From Vulcanimicrobiota bacterium (GTDB taxonomy: Bacteria; Vulcanimicrobiota; Xenobia; Xenobiales; JADMJV01): DNA of 64,000 nucleotides. Made by a program: the position numbers and the translations under genes. The DNA lies in NCBI GenBank assembly GCA_017307785.1, contig JAFKGI010000028.1, positions 22,752 to 86,751 of the forward strand. Direction: 5' to 3'. Under the pieces are notes generated by a model. It saw nothing but the letters and a program-made list of their open reading frames with translations, searched no databases and was not told the DNA's origin. Positions 4,470-45,422 of the stretch are shown piece by piece (the stretch's first letter is position 1; every line of letters begins with the position of its first letter).

Positions 4470-4795
4470 TCCTGGTCCAGACTGTTGGGTCCGCGCCGAA
4501 TGGTGCGATGGAAATACTCGTGCTTATCGTTGGGCGGGTAAGGACCGGCCAGAATCTCGAAATCATCGACCGGATAAATTACCACCACCGCATCGCTCTT
4601 CTTGAGCTCATCGGCCGAAACCGGCTGCCCGTTACGCAGGAAAGTGGAGTGACGCGGCGCCTTCACGGCATTGCCGGTGCTGTCCGTCACATAGACGGCC
4701 GTGCTCTCGACCGCCCAAACCTTCCCCTCCAACCGAGTCGGCTCCTGACCCCAGGCCAGCGCGGTCAATGCCAAAACACAAATCATCTTCTTCAT
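4439..4795 (-). CDS. small secreted protein of unknown function
   Basis: The internal ATG at 4795 gives 118 aa beginning MKKMICVLALTALAWGQEP (signal peptide). The longer ORF to 4954 runs into non-coding repeats. There is a 31-nt convergent overlap with the glycosidase gene. Confidence 0.55.
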   Translation of the reverse strand: MKKMICVLALTALAWGQEPTRLEGKVWAVESTAVYVTDSTGNAVKAPRHSTFLRNGQPVSADELKKSDAVVVIYPVDDFEILAGPYPPNDKHEYFHRTIRRGPNSLDQDYRDGVWVDR

Positions 4796-4848
4796 CTTGA
4801 GACCTTCTCTCCCACAAAACTCTTTCCTCGAGCCCGCCAACTCTCCGT

Positions 4849-4891
4849 CCGGAAAGGGGACCAGAGGGACGAGGAGATTTTGGAGACAGCC
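4849..4891. repeat. copy of the ~40-nt dispersed motif (CCGGAAGGGGACCAG..GGAGACRGC)
   Basis: ccggaaaggggaccagagggacgaggagattttggagacagcc resembles sequences at 30650-30692 and 32025-32066, and in reverse complement at 32184-32223, 43516-43556, 43776-43818 and 43996-44038. Confidence 0.6.
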
Positions 4892-4910
4892 GGACGACAA
4901 AAACAACTGG

Positions 4911-5120
4911 GGCCAAACCGCCTGCCACCACCTGAGGTAAGCAAACCACACCACCCGTGGTGGCCCCCCACCCGGCCCTGAGGGTCAGGCCACCCGCCAC
5001 CACCTGAGGTAAGCAACACACACCCCCTGTGGTGGCCCCCCACCCGGCCCAAAGGTCAAACCACCTGCCACCACCTGTGGTAAGCAACACACACCATCCG
5101 TGGTGGCATCCCCTCCGGCC
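4911..5120. repeat. three tandem ~71-bp repeats, each with an 8-bp GCCACCAC/GTGGTGGC hairpin
   Basis: Units lie at 4911-4981, 4982-5053 and 5054-5120. The GCCACCACCTG anchors at 4924, 4996 and 5067 give periods of 72 and 71 nt. Each unit contains GCCACCACCTGAGGTAAGCAA..CCGTGGTGGC followed by a C-rich tail. Confidence 0.85.
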
Positions 5121-5193
5121 GCGACACTCGGAAGCAAACGCCCTCCTCCAACCCCCCTCCCTCTCCCCAAACCTCCCCCTCTCCCCGCGGGAC

Positions 5194-5227
5194 GCAAAAA
5201 AAGGCCGGTGCGTGATGCACCGGCCTT
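5194..5227 (-). terminator. Rho-independent terminator of the 5255-5665 gene
   Basis: 11-bp perfect stem (AAGGCCGGTGC / GCACCGGCCTT, 5201-5227) with a 5-nt loop. On the minus strand it is followed by a run of 7 T (plus-strand A run 5196-5202). Confidence 0.75.
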
Positions 5228-5254
5228 GGTGTGTGTTGTTGGTATAACTTTTAC

Positions 5255-5665
5255 TTAGGCGCCGAAGAGGCTGCGCTGGCCGTATTGGCCATTGAGTCCC
5301 TGGAACATTCCGCTGCTCACGACCGAGCTGAGGGAGTTCAGGCCGGTGACGCCGGTGCCGTCGGCCGGGGCCTTGTAGCCACCGATTTCCTGCACGCCGC
5401 TCATCAACAGGCGGTCGGGAGAGTTGCGCACCGAGGGCTTCTCGCTGCGGGCGGCGACTTCGAAGCCGCCGGTGTTGACCGAGGCCGGGTCGGCCTGGAC
5501 GGAGCGGGTCTGCTTCTCGGCGACGGGAGCCTGGGGAGCGCTGAACTCGACCTGGTCGCCGACCGGAGCTGCTTCGTCCTGGGCGGGCTTGGCGCTGGTG
5601 TTGCGGTTGGGCTGAATCTTATTCTGGCCCGGGATATTGAAATTTCCACCGATAGAACTAGCCAT
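5255..5665 (-). CDS. small leaderless Gly/Ser/Ala/Gln/Pro-rich protein, unknown function
   Basis: 136 aa (MASSIGGNFNIPGQNKIQPN...). Strong SD AGGAGG lies 9 nt upstream of the ATG, and the gene has its own terminator. No signal peptide, no Cys, low-complexity composition. Confidence 0.7.
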   Translation of the reverse strand: MASSIGGNFNIPGQNKIQPNRNTSAKPAQDEAAPVGDQVEFSAPQAPVAEKQTRSVQADPASVNTGGFEVAARSEKPSVRNSPDRLLMSGVQEIGGYKAPADGTGVTGLNSLSSVVSSGMFQGLNGQYGQRSLFGA

Positions 5666-5804
5666 TTTTGTATGCCTCCTGGTTGGCGTTGTCTTGCTTC
5701 GTTGACAGTATGTTCCATGAGGACGCCGTCATTTGTTACCAAATTGTTAACACGCCGTCACGTCGACCCACTTTCGATAAATGTTTATTGACGTAACACA
5801 ACAT

Positions 5805-6866
5805 TCACTTTTGCCCGACCTCATCGCCCCCGTAGAAGACCTTCCAGGGCGGGGCCAGACAGCTCAGGTCGCGCAAAGGATCGCCGTTCACCAGAATCAG
5901 GTCGGCCCGCAGACCCACCCGGATGGCGCCACGGTCCTTCAATCCCATCCAGCGCGCCGGAACGCTCGTGGCCGAATCCAGAACCTGCCGAGGGGTCATT
6001 CCGGCGCGTTGCATCAACTGCAGCTCCTGAACGTCGATGCCGGGCGGCGGACCGTAGTTCCCCAGGTCGGTTCCATACAGCACCGTCCCACCGGCCTTCA
6101 CAAACCGCCCTAGATTGTCGAGGCGCTGCGCGCTGGCCCCGATGTGCAGGGTGGGACAAACCGCCACCTTGTGAGCCACCATCCACTGGATGCGATCCTC
6201 GGGCACCCGCACCGAGCTGAAGGTAAAGTGGGCCAGTTCATCCACACCCGCCGCCAGGGCCTGGTCCAGCTCCTCCAGACCACCCAGATGGGCCGTCACC
6301 TTCAGACCGCGCCGGTGAGCCTGTCTCACCACCTCGGGCAACTGGGGAAAGGGCAGGCTCACCTTAATTATGCTGGCCCCGCTCGCCTGCATGGCGGCCA
6401 CCGCCTGCTCGGCCTGAGCCGGCGTTCCCACCTGCACGGCCGTGTCCGCGGGACACCAGCCGGCTCGACTGGGATAGCCTCCCGGCGGACAAAGAATGCC
6501 TCCCGCGGCCAGCAAATCAGGCCCGCTAACCCGCAGAGCCGAACGGCGCCCCAGAATGACCCCGGGAGTCCAACCCAGGTCGCGCACGGTGGTCGTGCCT
6601 CCGCGCAGACATTGGCGGGCGTCACTCAGCTGCAGATGCACGTGGCTATCGATGAAGCCCGGCAAGAGCGTTCTGCCGCCCGCATCCAGACGAAGAGCGT
6701 CCTTAGGAATGGCAAAATGCCCGATGGCGGCAATCTGGCCGCCGCGAATCAAGATATCTTGAGGACTGGCATCCCCCACCAACCGTGCTCCCGACAGAAC
6801 CAGAGGTCGAGGAGCTGCCGGCCAACCGGCCAGCGTCAATAGAATCAGGAAAAGAAGTCGCCTCAG
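5805..6866 (-). CDS. amidohydrolase-family metallohydrolase (imidazolonepropionase/prolidase-like); start codon uncertain (CTG 6866 proposed)
   Basis: GFIDSHVHL metal motif and amidohydrolase-like body. The ORF extends to 7007, but that extension is R-rich and overlaps the upstream membrane-protein gene by 145 nt. A CTG at 6866 overlaps the upstream TGA (CTGA) and yields a clean signal peptide, RRLLFLILLTLAGWPAAP. Confidence 0.7.
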   Translation of the reverse strand: MRRLLFLILLTLAGWPAAPRPLVLSGARLVGDASPQDILIRGGQIAAIGHFAIPKDALRLDAGGRTLLPGFIDSHVHLQLSDARQCLRGGTTTVRDLGWTPGVILGRRSALRVSGPDLLAAGGILCPPGGYPSRAGWCPADTAVQVGTPAQAEQAVAAMQASGASIIKVSLPFPQLPEVVRQAHRRGLKVTAHLGGLEELDQALAAGVDELAHFTFSSVRVPEDRIQWMVAHKVAVCPTLHIGASAQRLDNLGRFVKAGGTVLYGTDLGNYGPPPGIDVQELQLMQRAGMTPRQVLDSATSVPARWMGLKDRGAIRVGLRADLILVNGDPLRDLSCLAPPWKVFYGGDEVGQK

Positions 6867-14388: not shown

Positions 14389-14400
14389 TGGTTCGGCCTA

Positions 14401-14548
14401 GAAGGGAAAGCGGGAAAGAAGGGAGAGCTGGAAAGAGCCCGGCCCATCGCGTTTTTTACGAAATAGGGACCCGACCACCCCTCAAAAAGGCTTGAGAAAG
14501 ACCCTCTCCCGCTCTCCAACCTTCCCACCTTTCCCTTCGGCAACCAGT
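14401..14548. repeat. dispersed-repeat copy (purine-rich arm ... pyrimidine-rich T arm) abutting the kinase stop codon
   Basis: GAAGGGAAAG (14401-14410) pairs with CTTTCCCTTC (14529-14538). The segment 14501-14548 (ctctcccgctctccaaccttcccacctttcccttcggcaaccagtc) matches 43851-43900 and 44071-44120. Confidence 0.6.
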
Positions 14549-16864
14549 CTAGGCGTTCAGGGGGAGGGCGACGATGAAGTGGGTGCCCTGGCCGGGTTGG
14601 GATTTGCAGCTGAGGGTGCCGCCGTGCTGTTGCACCAGTTCCAGCGAGGTGGACAGGCCCAGGCCGGTGCCCTCGCCGATAGCTTTGGTCGTGTAAAACG
14701 GATCGAAGATGCGCTGGCGGGTTTCCTCGCTCATGCCGCAGCCGTAGTCTTTGACGTGGATCAGGGCTTGCTCGTTGCGCTTCTCCAACCACATCTCGAT
14801 GCGCTTGAGCTGGGCTCCCGGCGTGCCACAAGCGTCCTTGGCGTTGATCAGCAGATTGCTGAAAACCTGCTGCAGCTCATTGGAATTGGCCTCGATCACG
14901 ACGGTGGGCCCGGGCGCGACCTCCACTTCCACTCCGGTCAGCTTCAGGGTGTGGGCCACCAGCTGGAAACTGTCGTCCATGACCTTGTGCAGGTCCACCC
15001 GGGAACGCATGCCGCGGCTGTCGCGACTGTAAGACAGTAGCTTGGAAATAATACCGCGCATCTGGTCGATGGATTCCAGAGCTTTCTCCAAACGCTTGCG
15101 CGACTTCTCGGGATTGTCGGCCACCGTCTCAATCGACAGCTCGACGGCAATCGATACGGCTCCCAACGGAGTATTCAATTCGTGGGCCACGCCGGCCGCC
15201 AGTTGACCGATGGCCGCCAGCTTGGAAGACTGAACCACCTGAGCTTGCGAAGTCTTTACCTGCTCCAAAGCCACGACCAGGCGCTTGTTCAGCTCGGCCC
15301 CTTCCAACAAGCAGGCAAACTGCACCGAGAACAGGCGCAGCAACTCGGTATCCACCAGCAGCAGCGGTTTGGGCGCATCGCCCAGCAGCAGCAGCTGGCC
15401 CTCCCCCATCGTGCCGGCCTGCAATCGGAAGGTGTAGCGCGGCGGATCCATAGCCAGGGCCCCGGATTTATACAGCTGCTCGCGCCAACGCACCTCCACC
15501 TGGAAGCCGGGAACCAGCTCGGGCAGGCGGCGCTGGGCCGTCTCCACCAACTCTTCCACGCTGCGACAAGAAACCAGCTGTCCCAAAAGATCCAGAGTAG
15601 CCGTCAGCCGGGTTGCCAGTTGATCCAGCTCGTAGCGCCGGGTCTGTTCGTCAGCCAGCACTCGCGACTGCATCTCGCGATAGCGAACCGCATCCAGACA
15701 CATCGGCAGATGGTGAGCCAGACGCAGCAATAGATGATGATGCGAAGGCTCCCAGCGCATCTGGGTATCGCTAACCACCAGCAGTCCTCGCTCGGGAATG
15801 TGCGCGGCCAGATGAAAAACCCCGTTCGCTTTGACCTCTTGGGCCTTGAAACGTTCATGGGCCATCTGCTCGAGCGACTCGCGGCCGGGCTCCAATTCGT
15901 CGGCACCAAAGCCGGCGGTGGCGCGTAACGTGCCATTCTCCAGCTCATAGAGAGTGATGCGGGCACAGGGGATGGCCCGGCGCACAAAGCTCAACAAGGC
16001 CGGGCGCAGATCGGCGGGCGACTGGATCAGAGCCGTCTCCATAAACAATTCGCCCACCAGCGTCAGCACCCGATGCTGCAGTTCCACTTCCAGACGCTGC
16101 ATCTCCACCTGGCTCTGCAGCCGCTGAAGTTCGCGACCAGCCCTCTCCTGGCGCCGCTCGGTGCGCGCCTGTTTGCGTCCCTCGCTCTCGGCCGCCAGCA
16201 CCTGAATCTGCGCCGCCACCGTCACCGTGAGCAGAGGTAAGGTCGCCAACAGCACCCCTACCGCCTCCGGATTGCGGGCCACCAGAGTCGAGAGCACTCC
16301 CCCCAGCACGCACAGAAACATCACGGCCGTGACGCTACGCTCACGCGCCAGCGTCCATAGCGAAAGCTGGCGGGCAGGCACGGCCTGAGCGAAAAGACCC
16401 GGAAGGAACTGCCAGGAAAGAAAATAGACCAGGGTGCATGCAAACGGGCGAGCCGACTCGGGCGTATTCCAGGCGGCCAGTCCGGCCCACAGTTCCGGAA
16501 GCCCATCGGAGAGCAGGCTCAGAGAGGATTCCGAACGGGAGCGAGCACGGATGAATCGGATCAAAAGGCCCGCTCCGAGCAACAGCAACCAGGGAGCTCG
16601 TCCCAAACTTACGCAGCCCACCGTCACCAGCAACGCGCTGGCGGACAGCGGGAAGCGCCCAAATCCCGCCAGTCTGGGCGCCAACCCTTCCGCCAGCAGG
16701 TAGCCCAGCAAGGGGGCCGCCAGGGGGAGTCCGTCCGCCTGGTTAGGAGGGACCGGCCCCATCCGCGCCAGGGCCAGGATCAAAGTCAAAACCAGAGCCG
16801 CCAACGGCACCATCGGTGTCGTTAAAACCTGATCTTCGTCTTCTTCCAACTCCAGATTCTTCAA
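14549..16864 (-). CDS. polytopic sensor histidine kinase (GAF-like repeats, HisKA, HATPase_c)
   Basis: 771 aa with multiple N-terminal TM helices. H-box AAGVAHELNTPLG; N and G boxes SNLLINAKDA and GTGLGLSTS. The TTG start overlaps the upstream stop (TTGA). Confidence 0.85.
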   Translation of the reverse strand: MKNLELEEDEDQVLTTPMVPLAALVLTLILALARMGPVPPNQADGLPLAAPLLGYLLAEGLAPRLAGFGRFPLSASALLVTVGCVSLGRAPWLLLLGAGLLIRFIRARSRSESSLSLLSDGLPELWAGLAAWNTPESARPFACTLVYFLSWQFLPGLFAQAVPARQLSLWTLARERSVTAVMFLCVLGGVLSTLVARNPEAVGVLLATLPLLTVTVAAQIQVLAAESEGRKQARTERRQERAGRELQRLQSQVEMQRLEVELQHRVLTLVGELFMETALIQSPADLRPALLSFVRRAIPCARITLYELENGTLRATAGFGADELEPGRESLEQMAHERFKAQEVKANGVFHLAAHIPERGLLVVSDTQMRWEPSHHHLLLRLAHHLPMCLDAVRYREMQSRVLADEQTRRYELDQLATRLTATLDLLGQLVSCRSVEELVETAQRRLPELVPGFQVEVRWREQLYKSGALAMDPPRYTFRLQAGTMGEGQLLLLGDAPKPLLLVDTELLRLFSVQFACLLEGAELNKRLVVALEQVKTSQAQVVQSSKLAAIGQLAAGVAHELNTPLGAVSIAVELSIETVADNPEKSRKRLEKALESIDQMRGIISKLLSYSRDSRGMRSRVDLHKVMDDSFQLVAHTLKLTGVEVEVAPGPTVVIEANSNELQQVFSNLLINAKDACGTPGAQLKRIEMWLEKRNEQALIHVKDYGCGMSEETRQRIFDPFYTTKAIGEGTGLGLSTSLELVQQHGGTLSCKSQPGQGTHFIVALPLNA

Positions 16865-20482: not shown

Positions 20483-21703
20483 TCACACCCCGTTCAGCAT
20501 CTGGTAGAGCGGCAGAAACATCGCGATCACAATGTAACCCACGATTCCTCCCATCACGCCGATCATCAACGGCTCCAACGCAGACATGAGAGTATTCAAG
20601 AGCAAATCAATCTCTTCCTCGAGCATCTCGGCCAGATGCTTATAGGACAGACTCAATTGCCCGGTTTCTTCTCCCAGTTCGGTAAAGCCGACCACGATGG
20701 CGGGAAAGGCCTCGCTGTGCCGCAAAAGGTCAGAAAAGGACTCCCCCTCCTCCACTCCGGCCACAATCTTGTCGATGGCTCGAGACATCTCGTAGTCGGC
20801 CAGCACCATATCGGTCAGCTCAAGGCTGTGGACCAGACCGATGCCACAAGCGCTGAGCGCCCCCATCGTGCGACTGAAGCGAGCCGCGCTGGCAGCCCGC
20901 AGCACCTGACTGACTCCGGGAATGCGCCGCAAAATCCACTGCAGCCGATAGCGTCCGCCCGCAGTCCGGAAATAGTGAGCAGAAAACAGCAGCGAGAGGA
21001 CCAGGGCGGGTAGCAAGATGTGGTAAAACCAGGCGGAATTCAGCAGATTGCCCACCAGCACGACGCTCTTGGTGATCCATGGCAGATCGGTGCCGGTTTC
21101 TTTGAAGACTCCGTTGATCAGCGTGGGCAGCACCTTTTGCGTCAGCAGCAACACCGCCAGACAGCAAATGAGAAACACGAAGGCGGGATACACCAGGGCC
21201 GAGCTCAGCTTCTGACGCAGGCGCAGCTCTCGTTCCAGATGGTCGGCCAGAGAATTGAGGTTGGCGACCAGGCCCCCGCTGCTCTCGCCCGCCTTGACCA
21301 GGCCGATAAAGACCGGCGAAAAAACGAGCGGATGGCGCCCCATGGCGCGGCTCAGAGAAAACCCCTTACTGACGCGATCGGACAAATCGGTCCAGGCCAG
21401 ATTGAGGCGCGGACCATAGTCGGCCATCTGCAGAACGTCCAACGAGCGCACCACATCGATGCCCGAATTCAGCATCACCGCCAATTGCCGGGTGGCCAGC
21501 GCCAGATCGAGCAGCCTGGGCGGGGCCAACAAGCGCAGCCGCGTCACCCAGGAGCTCAAATCGCGTTCCGGTCGTAATTGAGCCCATTCGAGACCGCGCT
21601 TGGACAGAATCAGGCGAGCGTCGTGTTCGTTGGCAGCTTCCACCGTACCGCTGACCAGCGACCCCCGCTCGACACTCTGAGCCGAATAAAAATACCGTTT
21701 CAA
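20483..21703 (-). CDS. type II secretion / type IV pilus platform protein (GspF/PilC family)
   Basis: 406 aa with two T2SSF-like repeats (LATRQLAVMLNSGIDVVRSL ...; FSRTMGALSACGIGLVHSL ...) and three TM segments. The TTG start overlaps the upstream stop (TTGA). Confidence 0.9.
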   Translation of the reverse strand: MKRYFYSAQSVERGSLVSGTVEAANEHDARLILSKRGLEWAQLRPERDLSSWVTRLRLLAPPRLLDLALATRQLAVMLNSGIDVVRSLDVLQMADYGPRLNLAWTDLSDRVSKGFSLSRAMGRHPLVFSPVFIGLVKAGESSGGLVANLNSLADHLERELRLRQKLSSALVYPAFVFLICCLAVLLLTQKVLPTLINGVFKETGTDLPWITKSVVLVGNLLNSAWFYHILLPALVLSLLFSAHYFRTAGGRYRLQWILRRIPGVSQVLRAASAARFSRTMGALSACGIGLVHSLELTDMVLADYEMSRAIDKIVAGVEEGESFSDLLRHSEAFPAIVVGFTELGEETGQLSLSYKHLAEMLEEEIDLLLNTLMSALEPLMIGVMGGIVGYIVIAMFLPLYQMLNGV

Positions 21704-28707: not shown

Positions 28708-30624
28708 ATGATGCTCTCTTCCGTAAACGAAGGCCGCGCCTTCAGCCGCCTTTCCCCCGTCAACCGCCCCCCCGCCAGCAAGGAAAGCCAACCCCAGGAC
28801 GGTTTCACCCCCTCGGGTGACACCCAGGAAGTGCAGGCCAGCAAGCCCACCCGTCAAGCCGGCACCAGCGCTCTCACCAAGGCCGTCATCGGCACCAGCC
28901 TGGCCGTCTCGGCCTTCACCGGCCTGGCTCCCTCAGCCCACGCAGCCGTGTCCGCAATGGTGCAGATGCAGCCCAAGCCGACCAACGGGCTGAACGTCAT
29001 CGTCCTCCCCAACAACACGCCCCGCCTGGACATCTTCAGCGCCGGCAAACACGGCATCGACCGCGACGTCAACCCGCGCGACTACACGCAGGTCGGCCTC
29101 GACCTGGGCAACGGACTCTTCCAGGACACCCACGGCAACCTCTCGGTGGTGCCCTACCTGGCCTACGACTGGAACGTGCAGGCCAGCGACTTCCAGCGCG
29201 TCGACATGGGCGTCAAAGGCCAGTCGATCGAGCGCTTCGGCGGCACCGTTCAGTTCTCCGAATCCTCCACCAAGCGGGAAATCTACTCCGAGTCGGGAGC
29301 CAAGACCACTCTCACCGGCCACAACGGCAAAACCGTCTTCGAGCGCAAGAACGACGGCAGCATCTCGGTCACCACCGAGAAAGACCACTACACCATCCGC
29401 CAGGACGGCATGTTCACCCGCATTCAGCGCGAAGGCCAGCCCGACATCAACGTGATGCGTTCCGGTGGCGAAATTCGCATCATCGAGAACAACCGCGCCT
29501 TTGCCGGTTCCTCTTTGAAAACCGACGGTTCCGTAACCACCATCAGCTCGGCTGGCGAAACCACCAGCACCCGCTCCGAGAGTGGCACCATCATCAATAT
29601 CGACGGCAAAAAGGGCCTCCGCGACGCCACCATCATCCGCGACGGCCAGACCTTCCTGGGCGGCAAAGACCGCGACCGCATGAACGTCAATGACCAGAAG
29701 TTGCTGGACGAAGCCAAAGCTCGCTATGACGACGTGATGGCGCAGCTCGAGCAAGTGGAACCCGGTTTCGCCCAAAAGCACCCGGTCGTGGCTGAAGTTC
29801 TTCAATACGCGGCGGCCAATCCGGCCCTGCTGATGGAGAAAGGCCAGAACACCGGATTCGTGCAGGCCGGCACCCTGCTGGCCACCACCAGCGCCGGAGC
29901 CAAGACGATTGGAGCGATGGGACTGGAAGCCGCCGCCATCAATATGGCCAACAGCGCTCGCGCTCTGGGCGCCGCCGCGCTGGCCGCCAAGGCCGCCGCT
30001 CAAGCCCAGGCCGCGGCCGGCAATCTGGCCCAGGCCGCTTCGCTGGCCAAAGACGCACAAGCCTTCGCCAGCCAGGCCAACGCCGCCAAAGACAACGCCA
30101 TCGCCACCGGCGGCAAGGCGATGAAAACCGCCAACCTGGCCCGCGTGCTGGCCGGCGTCGGTGGTGCCCTGGAAATCGTCAACGGCATTATGAACATCAA
30201 AGACGGCAAGACCGACCGGGCCCTCATCCAGGGCGCCCGCGCCGTCACCGAAAACAGCATGGAGCGCTGGTCGCAGGTGATGACCGGAGCCGACCGCGTG
30301 GCCGTCCAGGACGACTACGACAAAGTCATCAAGGTGATGGATCAGCTCGACAAACAAGCCGACAAGAAAGTGCGCGTGGGCGCGATGAAAATCGGCCTGG
30401 GTGGCCTGATGGTGGTCAGCGCTCTACTCGGACCGGAAGCCCCGCCCATCCTGGGCGCCATCGGCGTGGCCGGCGGCGTAGGCGTCGCCGTCTACGAGCA
30501 CTGGGGACCGATCAAGAGCTTCCTCACCGGCGAGTCCAACAAGGTCCCCACCTTCCTGGACATCCTGCCCAACAAAGACGAAGTCATCATCCACCTCGAC
30601 GGCAAGCAGCCCATCAAAAAATAA
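28708..30624 (+). CDS. large Ala-rich protein with C-terminal hydrophobic helical hairpin, unknown function
   Basis: 638 aa; SD AAGGAG lies 9 nt upstream. A long N-terminal extension precedes a signal-like H-region (TSALTKAVIGTSLAVSAFTGLAPSAHA). It also has an Ala-rich coiled segment and the hairpin MKIGLGGLMVVSALLGPEAPPILGAIGVAGGVGVAVY. Confidence 0.75.
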   Translation: MMLSSVNEGRAFSRLSPVNRPPASKESQPQDGFTPSGDTQEVQASKPTRQAGTSALTKAVIGTSLAVSAFTGLAPSAHAAVSAMVQMQPKPTNGLNVIVLPNNTPRLDIFSAGKHGIDRDVNPRDYTQVGLDLGNGLFQDTHGNLSVVPYLAYDWNVQASDFQRVDMGVKGQSIERFGGTVQFSESSTKREIYSESGAKTTLTGHNGKTVFERKNDGSISVTTEKDHYTIRQDGMFTRIQREGQPDINVMRSGGEIRIIENNRAFAGSSLKTDGSVTTISSAGETTSTRSESGTIINIDGKKGLRDATIIRDGQTFLGGKDRDRMNVNDQKLLDEAKARYDDVMAQLEQVEPGFAQKHPVVAEVLQYAAANPALLMEKGQNTGFVQAGTLLATTSAGAKTIGAMGLEAAAINMANSARALGAAALAAKAAAQAQAAAGNLAQAASLAKDAQAFASQANAAKDNAIATGGKAMKTANLARVLAGVGGALEIVNGIMNIKDGKTDRALIQGARAVTENSMERWSQVMTGADRVAVQDDYDKVIKVMDQLDKQADKKVRVGAMKIGLGGLMVVSALLGPEAPPILGAIGVAGGVGVAVYEHWGPIKSFLTGESNKVPTFLDILPNKDEVIIHLDGKQPIKK

Positions 30625-30636
30625 CGCCTTGACCGT

Positions 30637-30925
30637 CCTGCCTGGTCCCCGTCAAGAAGGGGGACCAGGGGGATGGGGGGACTCTGGAGACCGCAACGCT
30701 CAAGATTCCGGCAACCCCTCCTGGACGGAGCAGGCGCAGAATGGATGGGTCGCGGTAAGGCCGACTTTTGCTTGTGATGGTTTCTAGAGTCAGGTCGATC
30801 ATGAGCCAGGCCTAACCCTAAAAATCAACATGCGCAATAGCTGAGCCGAGGCACCGAAAGCAAGCGCCCATTGCTGAGCTCTTTCCATCTCCCCCTGGTT
30901 CCCTTCTTCCCCTTTCAAAAGAAGC
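30637..30925. repeat. full-length dispersed-repeat copy, inverted relative to the 43.4-44.1 kb copies
   Basis: The reverse complement of 30735-30835 aligns with the core ttgcgcatattgatttttaaggttaggcctggctcatgatcgacccaactctaaaaccatcacaagcaagaactcggccttgcc. The region 30838-30925 matches the purine-rich P module in reverse complement. Confidence 0.75.
30641..30669 (+). terminator. GC-rich hairpin just downstream of the 638-aa gene (possible terminator; part of the dispersed repeat)
   Basis: 10-bp stem CCTGGTCCCC / GGGGACCAGG with a 9-nt loop, 17 nt after the stop. No U-tract follows. Confidence 0.35.
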
Positions 30926-31223
30926 AGGGGCCTGGCATTCCCCCCTCGTCGGGTTGGCAACATGTTGGCCATAACGCGGCTACGCCCAAAGAGTAAAACC
31001 ATGGAAACGAGGCCCACATAGCGGGTCCAACAGGGGGAAACTTCCATGCTCAACGCTCAAATTCGCCGCAATCTGCAGCAAAATCAACCATCTCAGACCC
31101 TGACCGTACGGCCCGAGCTGTTTATCGCTCAGGCCGATCTCAGCAACGCCTCTCACGAACCTCAGGACGTCTTCGTGCCGCGCGATCCGTGCCTGGAACA
31201 GCCCGCAACCCCGGCTTTCCGAG

Positions 31224-31721: not shown

Positions 31722-32024
31722 GAAAAAAGCTCCCCTTCACGGAGAGCCTTCTCAGAAACTTTAGAATTGCTTGCTTAGCGCTCGGACTGGGCCAGCAACA
31801 ACATCAACAGCTCACGGGCCAGCTGGGTTTGGGGTTGGCAGGAGTCCTGAAAATTCTGGTGATTCATACGCCCTCCGAGACTTTTTCTTTATTTTGTGAA
31901 CTGATTGTAACCCGCCGCCCCTGTCCATGAGTTTGCCAAACGGCACCAATTCCGATCCAATCCGTCAACAACCCTCACTCCCGTTTCACTCCTGTTTAAC
32001 CAAGGCGTGCTGCCAACTATCCGT

Positions 32025-32223
32025 CGGGAAGGGGGACCGGGGGGATGATGGAGATGGGGAGACGGCTGAGCGGCAAGGCCGACCCGATCAGAGGTTGCTT
32101 TTAGGACGTTGGGTCAGTCGTACGCTTCGCCACTTTTCAAGAACGCCCGGCACCCGGTCGGCTAGTAGGAGTGCGGCAACGAAGCGTCTCCTGGTCTCCC
32201 ATTCACCCTGGTCCCCCTTCCGG
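32025..32223. repeat. two ~40-nt dispersed-motif copies in inverted orientation (long imperfect palindrome)
   Basis: 32025-32066 (cgggaagggggaccggggggatgatggagatggggagacggc) versus the reverse complement of 32184-32223 (ccggaagggggaccagggtgaatgggagaccaggagacgc). The partial core continues at 32060-32115. Confidence 0.65.
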
Positions 32224-32271
32224 ACACAAGTCGGCAGAACGGTAGCGGAGCCCCCCTCAGAACGGCAACTT

Positions 32272-40512: not shown

Positions 40513-41376
40513 CTACACCATCAGAAGAGCGGGCGGGTTGGCCGGCGGATTCTCCGGGGGCTTGGGCTTGGCCGGATGCACTTCGGGTTTGTCGCGCGTG
40601 ATCAGACCGTGGGCGGCGAAGTTGTTCGGACAGAAAATCGGCACCACCGCGGCCGGGTCGGGCGAGCCATCGGGCTGCGTCTTGGGAATTTGCTGGGACT
40701 CGGGCACCTGCTTGTTGACGCCGTCGATCAGATTGGACAGGCACGAATTGTTGACGGCGTCATACATCGAGCCCTGGTGATCCTTGACGGCTTCGGCCAC
40801 GCGGTCGTTCAGCAAGGCAACCTGCTGATCGTGGTTGAGCAAAAGTTTGTAGACCTGCAGCGGATAGTGATCGTTGACGTTGGCCTTCTCCAGAGCGTCG
40901 GTCCAGGTGCCGAGCTGGTGGATGGTCGGATTCTTGGCGTTGGGGTCGTAGGCTTCGCCCTGGTGAAAGTGCTGCTCAACCGAGATAGCCAGGCCCGGGT
41001 CGGTTTGACCCTGGCTGTTGCGCACCGGAGAGTCGGCTTCGAATTCAAACTTCAGCAAGGCGTGACCGGGGACGTTCATCGGCTGATCGGTAAAGGGCTT
41101 GATGCACAAGAAAACGTCTTTGACTTTCTTGGGGTCGAAGATCGCGTCCGAGAAGACACCCTTTTCGATACACTCGCCGTTGGGCTGGTTCTCGATGTCC
41201 CAACGAACGCCGTCCAGGTGAGTCAGGCCGTCCTGCGTCGGACCCAGGTCGGTGGCCGCGTGCTGCAAGGCCGACCAGGGCTGTTGCGCCGGGGGCGCGG
41301 GCTGCGCCGGCGGTTGGGCGGGCGGGTTGGCCGGGGGCTGATTGGGGCGGTTGAAGGTTCTCTGTGTAATCATCAT
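40513..41376 (-). CDS. hypothetical protein, possibly DUF4105-like, with Pro-rich termini
   Basis: 287 aa with an N-terminal NRPNQPPANPPAQPPAQPAPPAQQP and a C-terminal PAKPKPPENPPANPP. The central HALLKFEF and YDAVNNSCLSNL resemble DUF4105 motifs, but this assignment is tentative. Confidence 0.5.
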   Translation of the reverse strand: MMITQRTFNRPNQPPANPPAQPPAQPAPPAQQPWSALQHAATDLGPTQDGLTHLDGVRWDIENQPNGECIEKGVFSDAIFDPKKVKDVFLCIKPFTDQPMNVPGHALLKFEFEADSPVRNSQGQTDPGLAISVEQHFHQGEAYDPNAKNPTIHQLGTWTDALEKANVNDHYPLQVYKLLLNHDQQVALLNDRVAEAVKDHQGSMYDAVNNSCLSNLIDGVNKQVPESQQIPKTQPDGSPDPAAVVPIFCPNNFAAHGLITRDKPEVHPAKPKPPENPPANPPALLMV

Positions 41377-41431: not shown

Positions 41432-43327
41432 TTAGGACAACCAGGCCTGTCGCAAGCGGACCGCCCCCTCCGAAGCCCCGGGCAACTCTTCCAGAAAGGC
41501 CTGAGAGGGCGGACGAGCCGGGACCTCCAGTTCGCGCTTCTCCAGCTGACCGGTAAAAGGATCACTCCCCTGCACCTCGAGCTTGAGTGCGGCGCGATCT
41601 GCTTCCAACAGGCGAGCCGGCTGGCCGACGTAGGCGCTCAGTCCTTCGGCGGCACCGCTGCCGCCGGCACTGACGCCGGCCAACTTGAGAACTCCCTTGT
41701 CGTCCTGGGCCAGCGTGACGCCGAAAGCGGGCAAGGCCAAACTGCCGGCGGCCGGAGCCAGTCCCGAACCCGGTCCGTAGTCGACCTGGCCCTGAGGATC
41801 ACTGCTCAACAGGCCTCCGCTCAACGCCAGCTGACCGGCCGCAAAGCGGTCACCCCGTTCCGCCCACTGCATTCCGACCTGGCTCAGGATGCCGTCAAAA
41901 TCAAAGGGCTTGTGATCGTGCAGATAGTCCTGAAAGAACCGACTCACGCGCTGGTTTCCTCCGGCGGTGGCCAGAGCCAGGCGCTCCACATCTTCGACGC
42001 TCCAGAAGTGGTCCTGGCCGCCGAACTCGCTCTTGAGGGAGCGAAAGACATCGAACATGCCGCGCTCTCCGCCGGTAGCCGCCTTGATCTCCAGGTCCAG
42101 CAGGGCGCACGTGACGGCCCCCTTGTTGTAGAAACCGCTGTTACCCAGGTGGGCGTCAAAACTATTCTCGCGCGCGTTGCTGGGGTCCTGAGCGTAGGCC
42201 GCTTCGTAACCCCGGAACTGATCCTGGAGCATTTTCACGTACTGGCCTTCGCTCATCTGGCCACTCTTGCGCTGGAGCTCCATGGCGGCCCATTCCACGC
42301 CGCCTTCGCTCAGCCACAGGCCATCGCTGCAATGCACGTGAGCAAGGTCGGCGGAATCGATGCCTTCGTGACGCACGAACTTGGCCATCAGCTTGTGCAT
42401 CAACTCGTGAGCCATGATGTGACGCTCGTGAGCGCGTCCATCGCCGTCAAAGCGCCGCTCGATACCCGCCTGAGCAGCTTTGTGCAGCAGCAACTCGTGA
42501 CCGTGGTAGTGCTCGTAGCCGCCCGCGTTGGGGCCCTGGGCATGCAAATAATGCTTGGTGACCACGTACTTGTCGTCTTGACCGGCCAGGGCTTCGGGTA
42601 GCTGACGCGCATCATCGCGGCGCTGGCGGGGAAACTCGCCAAATTCTTTGGTGAAGGTGGCGTAAAGCTGCTGAAGGTCTTCGAGACTCTCCTCGGGAGT
42701 GGCTCCGTTGACTTTGATTCCGCTCCAGGGGGGCGTGCCGTTCTGGTTGATCTGAAGCAAGGTCTTGCCCTGACGGGCGCTGACCTGTTGGAACTGACCG
42801 GCCAGCACGTTGCTGTCGGCGATATCGTCATAGTTGGAAGCGTAAAACAACTCGGGGTGACCGGGCACGCTCTCCAGGGTGGAACTGGTTTTCCAATCGG
42901 CGGAGGGAAAGTTCTTGAGCTCGATCAGGCTGGGCTCATGTTCGCGGCCTTCCACGAACATCAGAGCGGAAGGACCGTTGACGTAGCTGAGCTTGTCGGT
43001 CAGATAGCTGCGCACGTGCGAGAATTCATCGGCTTTGACCCGGTATCTGAGGGTCAGTGGACCCGGAGCCTCGGCCTGCAAACGCCAGTGCCCGGCCGCC
43101 GTCTTCTCCAACTCGACCGGCTGGCCGGCCGCGTCGCAAGCGCTGAAACTGTTCAGCCGCAATGGTTGATTCAAGCTGTTGGTGGGAGAACCGGGGGAAA
43201 GCTGGGGCATCACCACATCCAGCGGTTCACTCCCCCGCCGTTCGACCTGCATTTCCACGCCAATCTGGCGCGTCTTGGTGTCGCTCAAGTCCAGTCGATA
43301 ACGAATCCCGGTCTTTATCTGATCCAT
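41432..43327 (-). CDS. M61-family glycyl aminopeptidase-like metallopeptidase with C-terminal PDZ-like domain
   Basis: 631 aa. The HExxH site (IMAHELMHKLMAKF) has a downstream Glu (WLSEGGVEW). The C-terminal GVTLAQDDKGVLKLAGVSAGGSGAAEGL is PDZ-like. Confidence 0.75.
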   Translation of the reverse strand: MDQIKTGIRYRLDLSDTKTRQIGVEMQVERRGSEPLDVVMPQLSPGSPTNSLNQPLRLNSFSACDAAGQPVELEKTAAGHWRLQAEAPGPLTLRYRVKADEFSHVRSYLTDKLSYVNGPSALMFVEGREHEPSLIELKNFPSADWKTSSTLESVPGHPELFYASNYDDIADSNVLAGQFQQVSARQGKTLLQINQNGTPPWSGIKVNGATPEESLEDLQQLYATFTKEFGEFPRQRRDDARQLPEALAGQDDKYVVTKHYLHAQGPNAGGYEHYHGHELLLHKAAQAGIERRFDGDGRAHERHIMAHELMHKLMAKFVRHEGIDSADLAHVHCSDGLWLSEGGVEWAAMELQRKSGQMSEGQYVKMLQDQFRGYEAAYAQDPSNARENSFDAHLGNSGFYNKGAVTCALLDLEIKAATGGERGMFDVFRSLKSEFGGQDHFWSVEDVERLALATAGGNQRVSRFFQDYLHDHKPFDFDGILSQVGMQWAERGDRFAAGQLALSGGLLSSDPQGQVDYGPGSGLAPAAGSLALPAFGVTLAQDDKGVLKLAGVSAGGSGAAEGLSAYVGQPARLLEADRAALKLEVQGSDPFTGQLEKRELEVPARPPSQAFLEELPGASEGAVRLRQAWLS

Positions 43328-43386
43328 AGGCGATCAGACTACTCGAAACTCGTGAAGAGAACCTTAAAACTCGGTGCTAGCTTCGT

Positions 43387-44126
43387 CTTGAAAAGGAGAG
43401 AAGGGGAACGAGGGACGGTGGATTCTGCGCATGTCGATTTTTAAGGTTAGGCCTGGCTCATGATCGACCCAACTCTAAAACCATCACAAGCAAGAACTCG
43501 GCCTTGCCGTGCAAGCCGTCTCCTGGTCCCCACTTCTCCCTGGTCACCCTTCCGGGACCAGCAAGCGCAGAACGCGTAGACTTCGTTCTGCGATTGTTTC
43601 CGTCGGAAAAGGAGAGAAGGGGAACGGGGGAAGGTGGAGAGATCGCAGCGACAGGCGCCTGCTTTTAGGTGCCTCGCCTCAGCTTTTGCGCATATTGATT
43701 TTTAAGGTTAGGCCTGGCTCATGATCGACCCAACTCTAAAACCATCACAAGCAAGAACTCGGCCTTGCCGTGCAAGCCGTCTCCTGATCCCCACTTCCCC
43801 CTGGTCACCTTTCCGGGACCAGCAAGCGCAGAACGGAAGGGTTAAGCGAAGACTCTCTCCCGCTTTCCCGGCTTCCCACCTTTCCTTTCGGGACCAGTCT
43901 TTCAGCTGGATGTTGATTTTTGAGGTTGGTTCCCGCTCAGGATCAATCCAGCTCTAAAAAACCATCACAAGCACGAACTCGGCCTTGCCGTGCGAGCCGT
44001 CTCCTGATCCCCACTTCTCCCTGGTCACCCTTCCGGGACCAGCAAGCGCAGAACGGAAGGGATGAGCGAAGGCTCTCTCCCGCTTTCCCGGCTTCCCACC
44101 TTCCCTTTCGGGACCAGTCTTTCAGC
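43387..44126. repeat. tandem array of three dispersed-repeat cores with P and T flanking modules
   Basis: Cores lie at 43436-43573, 43697-43834 (3 mismatches against copy 1) and 43915-44053 (5' third diverged, 3' two-thirds near-identical). Purine-rich P modules lie at 43387-43435 and 43592-43696. Pyrimidine-rich T modules lie at 43835-43914 and 44054-44126. A 9-bp hairpin CGCAGAACG/CGTTCTGCG lies at 43565-43591. Confidence 0.9.
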
Positions 44127-45422
44127 TCAGGGGGGAGAGTCGAAGAGGATGCGCAGCCAGTCGTCGGCCTGCATGCGCGGTTGCAGGCCGTGGTCGGGAG
44201 ACTCAAGGATCAGCCACTGGATGAAGCTGGCCAGTAGATGGCGCAGTTCGTCGCTCATCGATTCGATTCGATGCAGTTTGACCTTGGGGCCATAGCCGTG
44301 GACCAGGGCCGAGCGAGCGGCGTAGGCCGAGCGGAACAGATGGTAACTGGGTTGGCGCGGCGCTTTGTGAATCCAGTGCGAGAGCGACGAGCCATTGAGA
44401 GAAAAGCGATGGCTCAACTCATTTTGCAGACCCTGGAGCAAGACCGCTTCAAAGCCGATCACCAGATCGACCAGTCGATCCTCATGACGCAGCCGCGAGC
44501 CGGCCAGAGCGTAGCGATGTAGCGCGGAGCGCAGAGCCGGATGGTCCTGGGCTTTCTGGGCCACAGAAAAACTGCGGCGCAGGTCCGCCAGTTCGCCGGG
44601 GTGGATCAGGGTAGGCGGAAAGATGGCCGGCCCGGAGGAGCGCGGCAGACGCGAAGCGGCGCAGCGCCCCAGGTTAGGGCGGGCGACTAGAAAGAAAGGC
44701 GTACCCAGCTCCGCCTGAGCTTCCGGCTTGAGCAGCAGCACCGCTTCCTGCACCCGCTCGGTCTCCCGAAGATAACTCCGCCATCGCTCCGGGCCCTTGA
44801 AGAGATGGTCGAACTCGCGCAGTCGCTCCTGGCGGGTCACGCGCACCTCGACCCGCTGCAAAGTGGCCACGTCCGAACTGATCAAGCCGTATTGCAGCGT
44901 ATCCAGTGAGGGCATCCGGGCCGTCAGTTCTTCATCGTTCAGACTGTGCAGACCCACCCGATAGTTGGCTTCGGGCTCGCTCAAGTCCACGCTATCTCCC
45001 AGCAGTTCCACGCCCAGCAGCCGGCGGCACAGCACAAAAGTAGCTTCCGCTCGCTGACTGGCTTCCACCAGCTCCAGTAGATACTGGGAAAATTGAGAGC
45101 GCCGCAGCGTGGTGCCCTGGGTGGCGTGAGCCAGAGCCGAGTGTACCACCGCTTCCGCATGCGTCTCCGCGGAGCGGGACAGGCGTAGGGGGGAACTGGC
45201 AAACCATTCGCACAAAAGTGCGCTCAGATTGCGGAACGAAGCCAGGCCGTGCACGAACTCCCCCGACCAGCTGGCGAACTCGGCGTGCGGATCCACATGC
45301 AACGAACCGCTCCAGGCTTTCAGGGTCGCTCCCGGAGAAATCGAGAACTTGTCCTGACTGGGATGAGCCAGCATCTCCGCAATCAATTCCTCGGCGGCCT
45401 GGGCCAGGCGGGTCAAAGGCAT
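44127..45422 (-). CDS. HEPN-like (Rx4H) domain protein, candidate defence/abortive-infection RNase
   Basis: 431 aa. The C-terminal ~130 aa read FEAVLLQGLQNELSHRFSLNGSSL...FRSAYAARSALVHGYG. This matches the acidic-helix plus R-x4-H-G pattern (YxxRSxxVHG) that I associate with Apea/MAE-type HEPN domains. The N-terminal 300 aa are unassigned. Confidence 0.55.
   Translation of the reverse strand: MPLTRLAQAAEELIAEMLAHPSQDKFSISPGATLKAWSGSLHVDPHAEFASWSGEFVHGLASFRNLSALLCEWFASSPLRLSRSAETHAEAVVHSALAHATQGTTLRRSQFSQYLLELVEASQRAEATFVLCRRLLGVELLGDSVDLSEPEANYRVGLHSLNDEELTARMPSLDTLQYGLISSDVATLQRVEVRVTRQERLREFDHLFKGPERWRSYLRETERVQEAVLLLKPEAQAELGTPFFLVARPNLGRCAASRLPRSSGPAIFPPTLIHPGELADLRRSFSVAQKAQDHPALRSALHRYALAGSRLRHEDRLVDLVIGFEAVLLQGLQNELSHRFSLNGSSLSHWIHKAPRQPSYHLFRSAYAARSALVHGYGPKVKLHRIESMSDELRHLLASFIQWLILESPDHGLQPRMQADDWLRILFDSPP

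Follow-up and report, generated by a model that had tools for sequence, protein, structure and literature searches.

A foldback repeat family in a Vulcanimicrobiota genome and the array it forms between two co-directional genes

What separates two neighboring genes of a bacterium assigned to the Vulcanimicrobiota by 799 nt of largely repetitive DNA, and is the intervening sequence an RNA gene or a repeat? The genes encode a conserved 431-aa protein (g431) and an M61 glycyl aminopeptidase (M61) and lie within the window analyzed here, a 64,000-nt stretch of contig JAFKGI010000028.1 (assembly GCA_017307785.1). An earlier note made from the letters of this window had described the spacer as a tandem array of a ~139-nt core, representing either a family similar to MITEs (miniature transposable elements that carry inverted repeats) or an unclassified structured non-coding RNA family. 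We conclude that the gap is probably filled by a foldback repeat, lineage-specific, non-coding, and of selfish or neutral character, that has piled up locally. The repeat is regarded as an ordinary miniature repeat and not as a demonstrable new RNA gene, because it is found immediately behind stop codons at several sites of the genome and is missing from close relatives.

Composition of the array and its basic unit

Repeat modules make up almost the whole of 43379-44126, whereas the 51 nt adjoining the M61 start codon (43328-43378) are unique sequence, and the proposal that the entire gap is built of repeats is narrowed to that extent. The description of the cores was borne out. The ~139-nt core occurs three times (43431-43574, 43692-43835, and 43910-44055); between cores 1 and 2 the identity is 96% over 152 nt, with 3 differing positions within the 139-nt core, and core 3 is diverged in its 5' part (78% identity in 50 nt) and ~97% identical in its 3' half. 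The cores alternate with purine-rich P modules (43390-43422 and 43606-43646), and pyrimidine-rich T modules occupy 43837-43909 and 44057-44126, T1 and T2 being ~95% identical within a 220-nt period. Tandem Repeats Finder likewise reports a period of 220 nt, with 2.0 copies and 90% matches over 43695-44127.

The P and T modules that the note described are present, but they are not separate building blocks. A profile was built from 13 arms (the P modules in reverse complement, the T modules, and the core's pyrimidine tract, here called Y) and searched with nhmmer; P, T, and Y constitute one family of ~50-nt arms in two orientations. Fourteen arms were found in the window (E 5.8e-11 to 1.4e-5), seven of them in the array and the others at 4842-4890, 14389-14440, 14500-14550, 30645-30694, 30876-30928, 32018-32067, and 32182-32231. 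The purine fraction is 0.68-0.76 in the purine arms vs 0.27-0.36 in the pyrimidine arms, and alignment of P with the reverse complement of Y or T gives 19-38 Watson-Crick positions per pair. Since P and Y/T are reverse complements of each other, the family's basic unit is a foldback made up of a purine arm, an insert, and a pyrimidine arm.

The foldback units are 170-300 nt long, with variable inserts (50-250 nt between the inverted arms), and eight of them align over their full length in one common architecture. The insert usually contains a central module that forms a long-range hairpin of its own (GATTTTT...AAAA[C/T]C), and a linker hairpin is optionally added. Two arm subtypes were distinguished, a CTGGTCCCC type and a CTCTCCCGCTTTCC type. 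The CTGGTC..GACCAG hairpin previously noticed in the cores is present and is confined to the type-I pyrimidine arm, the arms being otherwise not self-complementary. RNAfold predicts pairing of P1 with the pyrimidine tract of core 1 and of P2 with T1. The predicted duplex energy of P2-T1 is -50.1 kcal/mol vs -42.9 for P2-Y2. With T1 as the best partner of P2, unit 2 resembles a type-II pair that encloses a type-I arm in addition to a central module. The AGGCGCC/GGTGCCT helix of this unit is present and has a counterpart at 30.85 kb, although the G-U-compatible change reported for it amounts to a single A-to-G difference between two copies.

Taken from left to right, the array (Table 1) reads as unit 1 (P1, core 1), an inverted CAGAACG hairpin, unit 2 (P2, linker, core 2, T1), and then core 3 with T2, the last two reading as the right-hand part of unit 2 duplicated in tandem over 220 nt. 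Most of the short-read contigs are interrupted within this array, and two contigs (L020 and L027) carry a shorter, apparently collapsed version, as would be seen if the array were a collapsed or mis-joined assembly product. Against such an artefact, all 741/741 nt of the array are matched by an independent NCBI contig, MEEQ01000351.1 (GCA_001724515.1), that spans both flanking genes, and two more assemblies agree with it over 657 nt (100%) and 608 nt (98.8%). Because these assemblies agree, we do not regard the array as an assembly artefact and consider the chance of one negligible.

Dispersed copies and empty sites in relatives

Exact-protein look-ups of the window genes added 8.1 kb past the left edge and 7.3 kb past the right edge, giving ~79 kb in total. 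This region contains ~10 units (17 arms) at 6 intergenic loci, which constitute 2.8% of the sequence, and almost all dispersed repeats of the window belong to the foldback family. The copies in the window outside the array (at 14.4, 30.6-30.9, and 32.0-32.25 kb, and the arm at 4.85 kb) were found with nhmmer E between 1e-5 and 1e-42, far beyond chance. Further copies exist beyond the window, as the earlier note had proposed to check: a second tandem pair of complete units lies 8 kb outside it (L015:3343-3760, composed of 3343-3551 and 3552-3760), with a period of 209 nt and an identity of 78-88%. The duplicated segment takes in the stop codon of the neighboring gene and ~8 nt of the gene, and for this reason the pair is attributed to local tandem duplication and not to repeated insertion.

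Table 1. Repeat modules, dispersed copies, and genes flanking the array (positions in the window)
Feature	Positions	Strand	Supporting data
Arm P1, left arm of unit 1 (E1), purine-rich, reverse complement of Y/T consensus	43379-43428	+	nhmmer (13-arm profile) E=7.9e-7; purine fraction 0.68; paired with Y1 by RNAfold
E1 central module (5' part of core 1), with conserved hairpin 43432-43450 / 43469-43486	43431-43512	+	
Arm Y1, pyrimidine-rich (3' part of core 1), with CTGGTC..GACCAG hairpin	43513-43565	+	nhmmer E=1.1e-10
Local hairpin GCAGAACG..CGTTCTGC between E1 and E2, inverted copy of CAGAACG tail motif	43566-43594	+	
Arm P2, purine arm of unit 2 (E2), best partner T1	43595-43644	+	nhmmer E=7.5e-8
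Linker hairpin AGGCGCC..GGTGCCT, common only to E2 and the 30.85-kb copy	43649-43690	+	
Core 2: central module and arm Y2 (43774-43826)	43692-43836	+	
T1 module: pyrimidine arm 43850-43898 and tail ..GGGACCAGTCTTTCAGCT	43837-43909	+	nhmmer E=1.2e-7; 85% identity to T module 14498-14550
Core 3: diverged central module and arm Y3 (43994-44046), without own purine arm	43910-44056	+	within 220-nt tandem duplication with core 2 and T1
T2 module (arm 44070-44118), end 0 nt from g431 stop codon (44127-44129)	44057-44126	+	
Short copy: purine arm, ~50-nt insert, T-type arm; fills whole spacer between two minus-strand genes, T end overlapping a stop codon	14389-14552	+	
Copy in opposite orientation, with a purine arm, then linker hairpin and central module, an extra segment, and a Y arm; Y end ~8 nt from stop codon of gene 28708-30624	30639-30930	-	
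Copy with different insert, directly after stop codon of transglutaminase-like gene	31994-32271	+	278-nt insertion vs 89% relative L028
Purine-type arm, possible further copy with different cargo	4842-4890	+	nhmmer E=1.4e-5
M61 glycyl aminopeptidase, downstream flanking gene	41432-43327	-	Pfam PF17899 (1.6e-28), PF05299 (3.1e-10)
Conserved 431-aa protein (g431), upstream flanking gene	44127-45422	-	

Copies at different loci share 60-90% identity, the arms diverging to ~60%, and most copies have a GC content of 56-58% vs 62% for the genome. The motif GGGACCAG is enriched, with 13 occurrences vs ~2 expected, mostly inside elements. This enrichment, together with the strong purine/pyrimidine strand asymmetry of the arms, might be taken to mean that the arms are DNA-level sites, bound by a protein (nucleoid protein or gyrase, as for the bacterial interspersed mosaic elements, BIMEs) or prone to form structures such as triplexes, and kept for a chromosomal role. 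We consider this very unlikely, given that no binding protein or conserved short core could be defined, that the arms are so diverged, and that relatives are entirely without them.

Synteny around the array is kept in genomes whose 431-aa protein is 86-89% identical, and there the g431-M61 spacer measures 41 nt (L006 and L033) or 141 nt (L032, where it holds a different, small GC-rich palindromic repeat), as against 799 nt in this window; in the L028-L031 lineage the M61 gene itself is missing. A second empty site is provided by L028, which aligns on both sides of the 32-kb copy, so that the latter appears as an insertion of 278 nt (31994-32271). No match to an arm or unit was obtained at E ≤ 1 in ~105 kb of unique DNA of relatives. 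The family has spread in this lineage only.

Wider searches were made in several collections. Exact-pattern scans for core and arm motifs gave 0 matches in the GTDB species genomes, the JGI metagenomes (two patterns), and IMG/VR, collections from which the source genome is itself absent. BLAST of plasmids and phages produced no match to the family, and translated frames of the array (a 78-aa frame and a six-frame concatenate) have no relatives in a set of 5.8 billion proteins. The samples of this organism are thiocyanate-bioreactor and related metagenomes, the nearest genome matches are labeled as metagenome-assembled genomes (MAGs) of Vulcanimicrobiota/Eremiobacterota, and full-text literature searches found no paper on repeats in this phylum.

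Several observations concern the surroundings of individual copies. For the arm at 4842-4890 no right-hand partner was detected by the arm profile. Beside it lies a tandem repeat of three 72-nt units (4911-5120) that form CCACCAC..GTGGTGG hairpins, followed on the other side by a pyrimidine-rich tract (5130-5190) and by a strong hairpin with a T-run in the minus-strand reading (5196-5228); five short-read contigs end around 4842-5228. An 84-aa open reading frame (ORF) at 30799-31053 (-) overlaps the 30.8-kb copy, has no Pfam match, and is probably spurious, having been created by the repeat. Just downstream of the 32-kb copy, a 30-aa ORF (MNHQNFQDSCQPQTQLARELLMLLLAQSER) at 31775-31867 (-) shows nucleotide-level conservation with L028, as do ~120 nt on its upstream side; a 30-aa gene is called in L028 at 21192-21284. 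The ORF is likely a genuine small gene whose leader or promoter (upstream to ~31993) is conserved too.

Other observations concern the g431 region in relatives. The label "HEPN-like" given earlier to the 431-aa protein is unsupported, because the protein has no match in Pfam, NCBIfam, or PDB sequences. It has 22 homologs (41-100% identity) in related metagenomic lineages, and its gene adjoins a region with an extracytoplasmic function (ECF) sigma factor. The repeat in L032 (positions 3169-3309; 431-aa protein 87% identical) consists of two copies of a GC-rich palindromic unit, GCGCCTCCCCCTRGGACCCCCYGCTTTT..., and represents another repeat type that colonized the same spacer independently in a sister lineage. 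In the closest lineage, L028-L031 (431-aa protein 89% identical), the gene of the 431-aa protein is followed after 119 nt (around L028:11297-11415) by a homolog of gene 40513-41376. The 12-mer TTTCAGCTTCGT at L006:4958-4969 equals the right-edge sequence of the array, TTTCAGCT, joined to the left-edge sequence, AGCTTCGT, on the opposite strand (window 44119-44126 and 43381-43388), and is unexplained by simple insertion, inversion, or tandem-junction models. Contig L011 (MEEQ01000281.1) contains at 3018-6288 a 780-aa call in which an NuoL-like proton-antiporter domain is fused to FlgK-like domains, followed by flagellin; this arrangement is unlike the nuo operon of the window and probably reflects a chimeric contig in that MAG.

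RNA structure, stop-codon placement, and mode of spread

Three near-identical ~140-nt tandem units, each with a terminal hairpin, could suggest that every core is an independent small-RNA gene and that the array is a small-RNA cluster upstream of the M61 peptidase gene. The signals of such genes were looked for. No sigma-70-like promoter was found in the array region by a scan restricted to the sigma-70-type consensus, and the weak terminator-like sites (4 vs 1.1 ± 1.1 expected) include none that closes each unit on one strand. Rfam gave 0 gathering-threshold matches in the 64 kb, and at E ≤ 10 the array returned only noise (E = 5.5-8), so that the scan for a known RNA family proposed in the earlier note yielded nothing meaningful. 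Partial copies and arm-only modules lie beside unrelated genes in both orientations, and the whole segment is missing in close relatives. A cluster of small-RNA genes is, on these grounds, highly improbable.

A second RNA-level explanation is that the units are cis-acting structured modules in 3' untranslated regions and intercistronic spacers, kept by selection, as proposed for some repetitive extragenic palindromic (REP) elements and BIMEs, enterobacterial repetitive intergenic consensus (ERIC) sequences, and BOX elements. Rod-like hairpins after stop codons would then stabilize the upstream mRNA, attenuate read-through, or direct processing. The placement of the units agrees with this. At five loci (the array, the 14.4-, 30-, and 32-kb copies, and unit L015b of the outer pair) a gene transcribed towards the element has its stop codon 0-8 nt from the pyrimidine-arm end, and all four loci between co-directional genes have one and the same polarity, the transcript reading the same element strand. 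Folding of the array points the same way: the consensus fold of the three cores has -47.5 kcal/mol on the transcribed minus strand vs -28.3 on the plus strand, and for unit 1 the z values are -4.6 (minus strand) and -2.7 (plus strand). In addition, the central hairpin is kept in 6 copies, with 91% of cells paired vs 33-62% in slid controls, and 3 of its pairs are changed on both sides.

The remaining results argue against a selected cis-acting RNA. The covariation score of the central hairpin was reached by 27/500 shuffles, which is marginal and within what related sequences give without structure. The better-folding strand is not constant among copies: it is the antisense strand for the array, the 14-kb copy (minimum free energy z of 14389-14552, -2.6 sense and -4.7 antisense), the 4.8-kb copy, and the L015 pair, and the sense strand for the 30- and 32-kb copies. 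One copy, L15a, has no folding advantage over shuffles at all (z +1.5 and -0.1). In the arm pairings, G.U-compatible and A.C mismatches are balanced between the strands, and an arm pairs no less well with arms from other units than with its own partner, so that there is no sign of compensatory co-evolution. Relatives manage without the element at the same two sites, and the shared polarity is only suggestive, because four informative loci give a two-sided p of 0.125. We consequently judge selection for a cis-acting RNA to be unlikely. The idea of a structured non-coding RNA family in general is not supported either, with no Rfam match, no promoter or terminator per unit, marginal covariation, and an inconsistent folding strand. 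A related view, to which we give a still smaller chance, is that the units have been domesticated as polarity-locked 3'-end or intercistronic RNA modules (rod-like hairpins of ~100 bp placed 0-8 nt behind stop codons, with a role in termination, attenuation, or mRNA stabilization), or that they spread by a mechanism targeting the stop-codon ends of genes.

The preferred reading, a selfish or neutral repeat, accounts for the placement most simply by purifying selection, under which only an insertion far from the start signals of the next gene would be harmless in a 41-nt spacer. A replication-linked bias is an equally possible cause of the polarity; five of six loci share one absolute orientation, and the window has a negative GC skew throughout. 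To account for the stop-codon adjacency, a preference for YTAR or TA targets was tried and rejected, as by eye it fits only 2/5 sites.

Under the same reading, the copies would have spread in trans by means of an enzyme encoded elsewhere in the genome, the candidates being a single-strand transposase of the RAYT (REP-associated tyrosine transposase)/IS200-IS605 type, by analogy with REPINs, or, on the model of MITEs, a DDE transposase. Selection would have spared only those insertions that lie where a spacer adjoins a stop codon, distant from the next start signals. Arrays are seen to grow by tandem duplication in which flanking sequence is copied as well. The copies would now be decaying, as suggested by the 60-90% identity between loci, the lack of a folding advantage in L15a, and the arms without preference for their own partner. 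When the g431-M61 operon is transcribed, the insert would fold into long hairpins, which may influence read-through or the stability of the mRNA, though as a side effect and not as a selected RNA function.

Several points weigh against this reading. The shared polarity and the stop-codon adjacency could instead point to a selected role at the RNA level. Candidate target-site duplications flanking the copies (AGCT at the array, CTAG at 14.4 kb, TAA(C) at 32 kb) are 3-4 nt long, differ from each other, and depend on boundaries picked post hoc; none was found at the remaining loci, and the array and the 32-kb insertion have unlike termini. As the earlier note had already observed for the neighborhood, no transposase is present among the scanned genes and gene tables, and neither a transposase nor an autonomous element was found in the ~79 kb by Pfam domains and gene tables. 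There is no sign of recent mobility, because no near-identical copies occur at different loci. Finally, 17/42 short-read contig termini fall at elements, yet these breaks do not prove a high genome-wide copy number, because local tandem copies mostly explain them.

The result provides a repeat family for a phylum that is little studied and largely uncultivated. It also explains the fragmentation of short-read assemblies of this organism at these spacers and warns annotators against calling ORFs or RNA genes inside the elements. With a hairpin-rich insert of 799 nt between genes that are 41 nt apart in relatives, the locus is a natural test case for effects on operon expression, and if the stop-codon placement and polarity hold, the family bears on an old debate, namely whether repeats of this kind are parasites or RNA elements that were co-opted.

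Comparison with known repeat families

We file the repeat with the miniature interspersed palindromic repeats (REPIN-, MITE-, or BOX-like), as a new and lineage-restricted member of that class whose sole mildly unusual features are the purine/pyrimidine arms and the placement by stop codons. Four other kinds of system were considered and rejected. No reverse transcriptase or Cas-type domain of the kind expected for diversity-generating retroelements, retrons, or CRISPR occurs in the genes scanned or the gene tables, and the differences among copies are not confined to adenines. A type III toxin-antitoxin system does not fit either, the units (200+ nt) being far longer than ToxI-type repeats and the copies lying beside unrelated genes.

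The general features fit MITEs. Like bacterial MITEs such as Correia elements and Nezha (PMC3049150, PMC3184786), the elements are small, non-coding, dispersed, intergenic, and somewhat less GC-rich than the genome, and they have terminal inverted arms and a highly paired predicted fold. They differ in that their inverted repeats are imperfect, compositionally skewed, and, at ~50 nt, unusually long, with outermost tips poorly conserved between loci; a target-site duplication is not demonstrated, and no insertion sequence with matching ends is known. The MITE-like assignment made earlier is thus upheld at the level of the class, by dispersed, non-coding copies with inverted arms and two empty sites, but not as strict MITE membership.

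The modular build resembles the pneumococcal BOX elements, boxA-(boxB)n-boxC, and the BIMEs of Escherichia coli, both of which are mosaic intergenic repeats (PMC3049150). The likeness is one of architecture only: end modules are predicted to pair, internal modules may be absent, swapped, or in tandem, predicted folding is extensive, and the elements appear to be co-transcribed with their neighbors. Rfam, the sole curated library scanned, gave no match. The host phylum is different, as is the module set, which here comprises two arm subtypes, the central hairpin, the linker hairpin, and the CAGAACG tail. REP elements and mycobacterial interspersed repetitive units (MIRUs) are intercistronic repeats with orientation-dependent effects on mRNA, and MIRUs form tandem arrays. 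Such orientation-dependent effects have also been described for ERIC and BIME (PMC3049150). The present elements share with REP, ERIC, and MIRU the position between operon cistrons and near stop codons and a preferred polarity (here from 4 informative loci), and differ from MIRUs in having no small overlapping ORFs.

In architecture and cluster behavior, the family appears closest to REPINs, which are REP doublets that form hairpins and are mobilized by RAYT transposases (PMC3116915). The arms are ~50-nt purine/pyrimidine tracts here, in contrast to the self-palindromic REPs of ~20-40 nt, the units are longer (170-300 nt) with variable and partly modular inserts, and the copies are much more diverged (60-90% identity); no RAYT (Y1 HUH transposase) gene, which in REP-RAYT systems is usually flanked by the repeats, was found in the ~79 kb examined. 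Shared with REPINs are the two inverted arms with a spacer, predicted here to form a long hairpin, the strictly extragenic and non-coding location, the solo arms as apparent remnants, and the restriction of the family to one lineage. REPIN clusters in Pseudomonas fluorescens have been described as "tandem repeats ... including the flanking sequences" (PMC3116915), and the same pattern is seen here in the L015 pair with its duplicated stop codon and in the 220-nt unit of the g431-M61 array, repeated at 90% identity.

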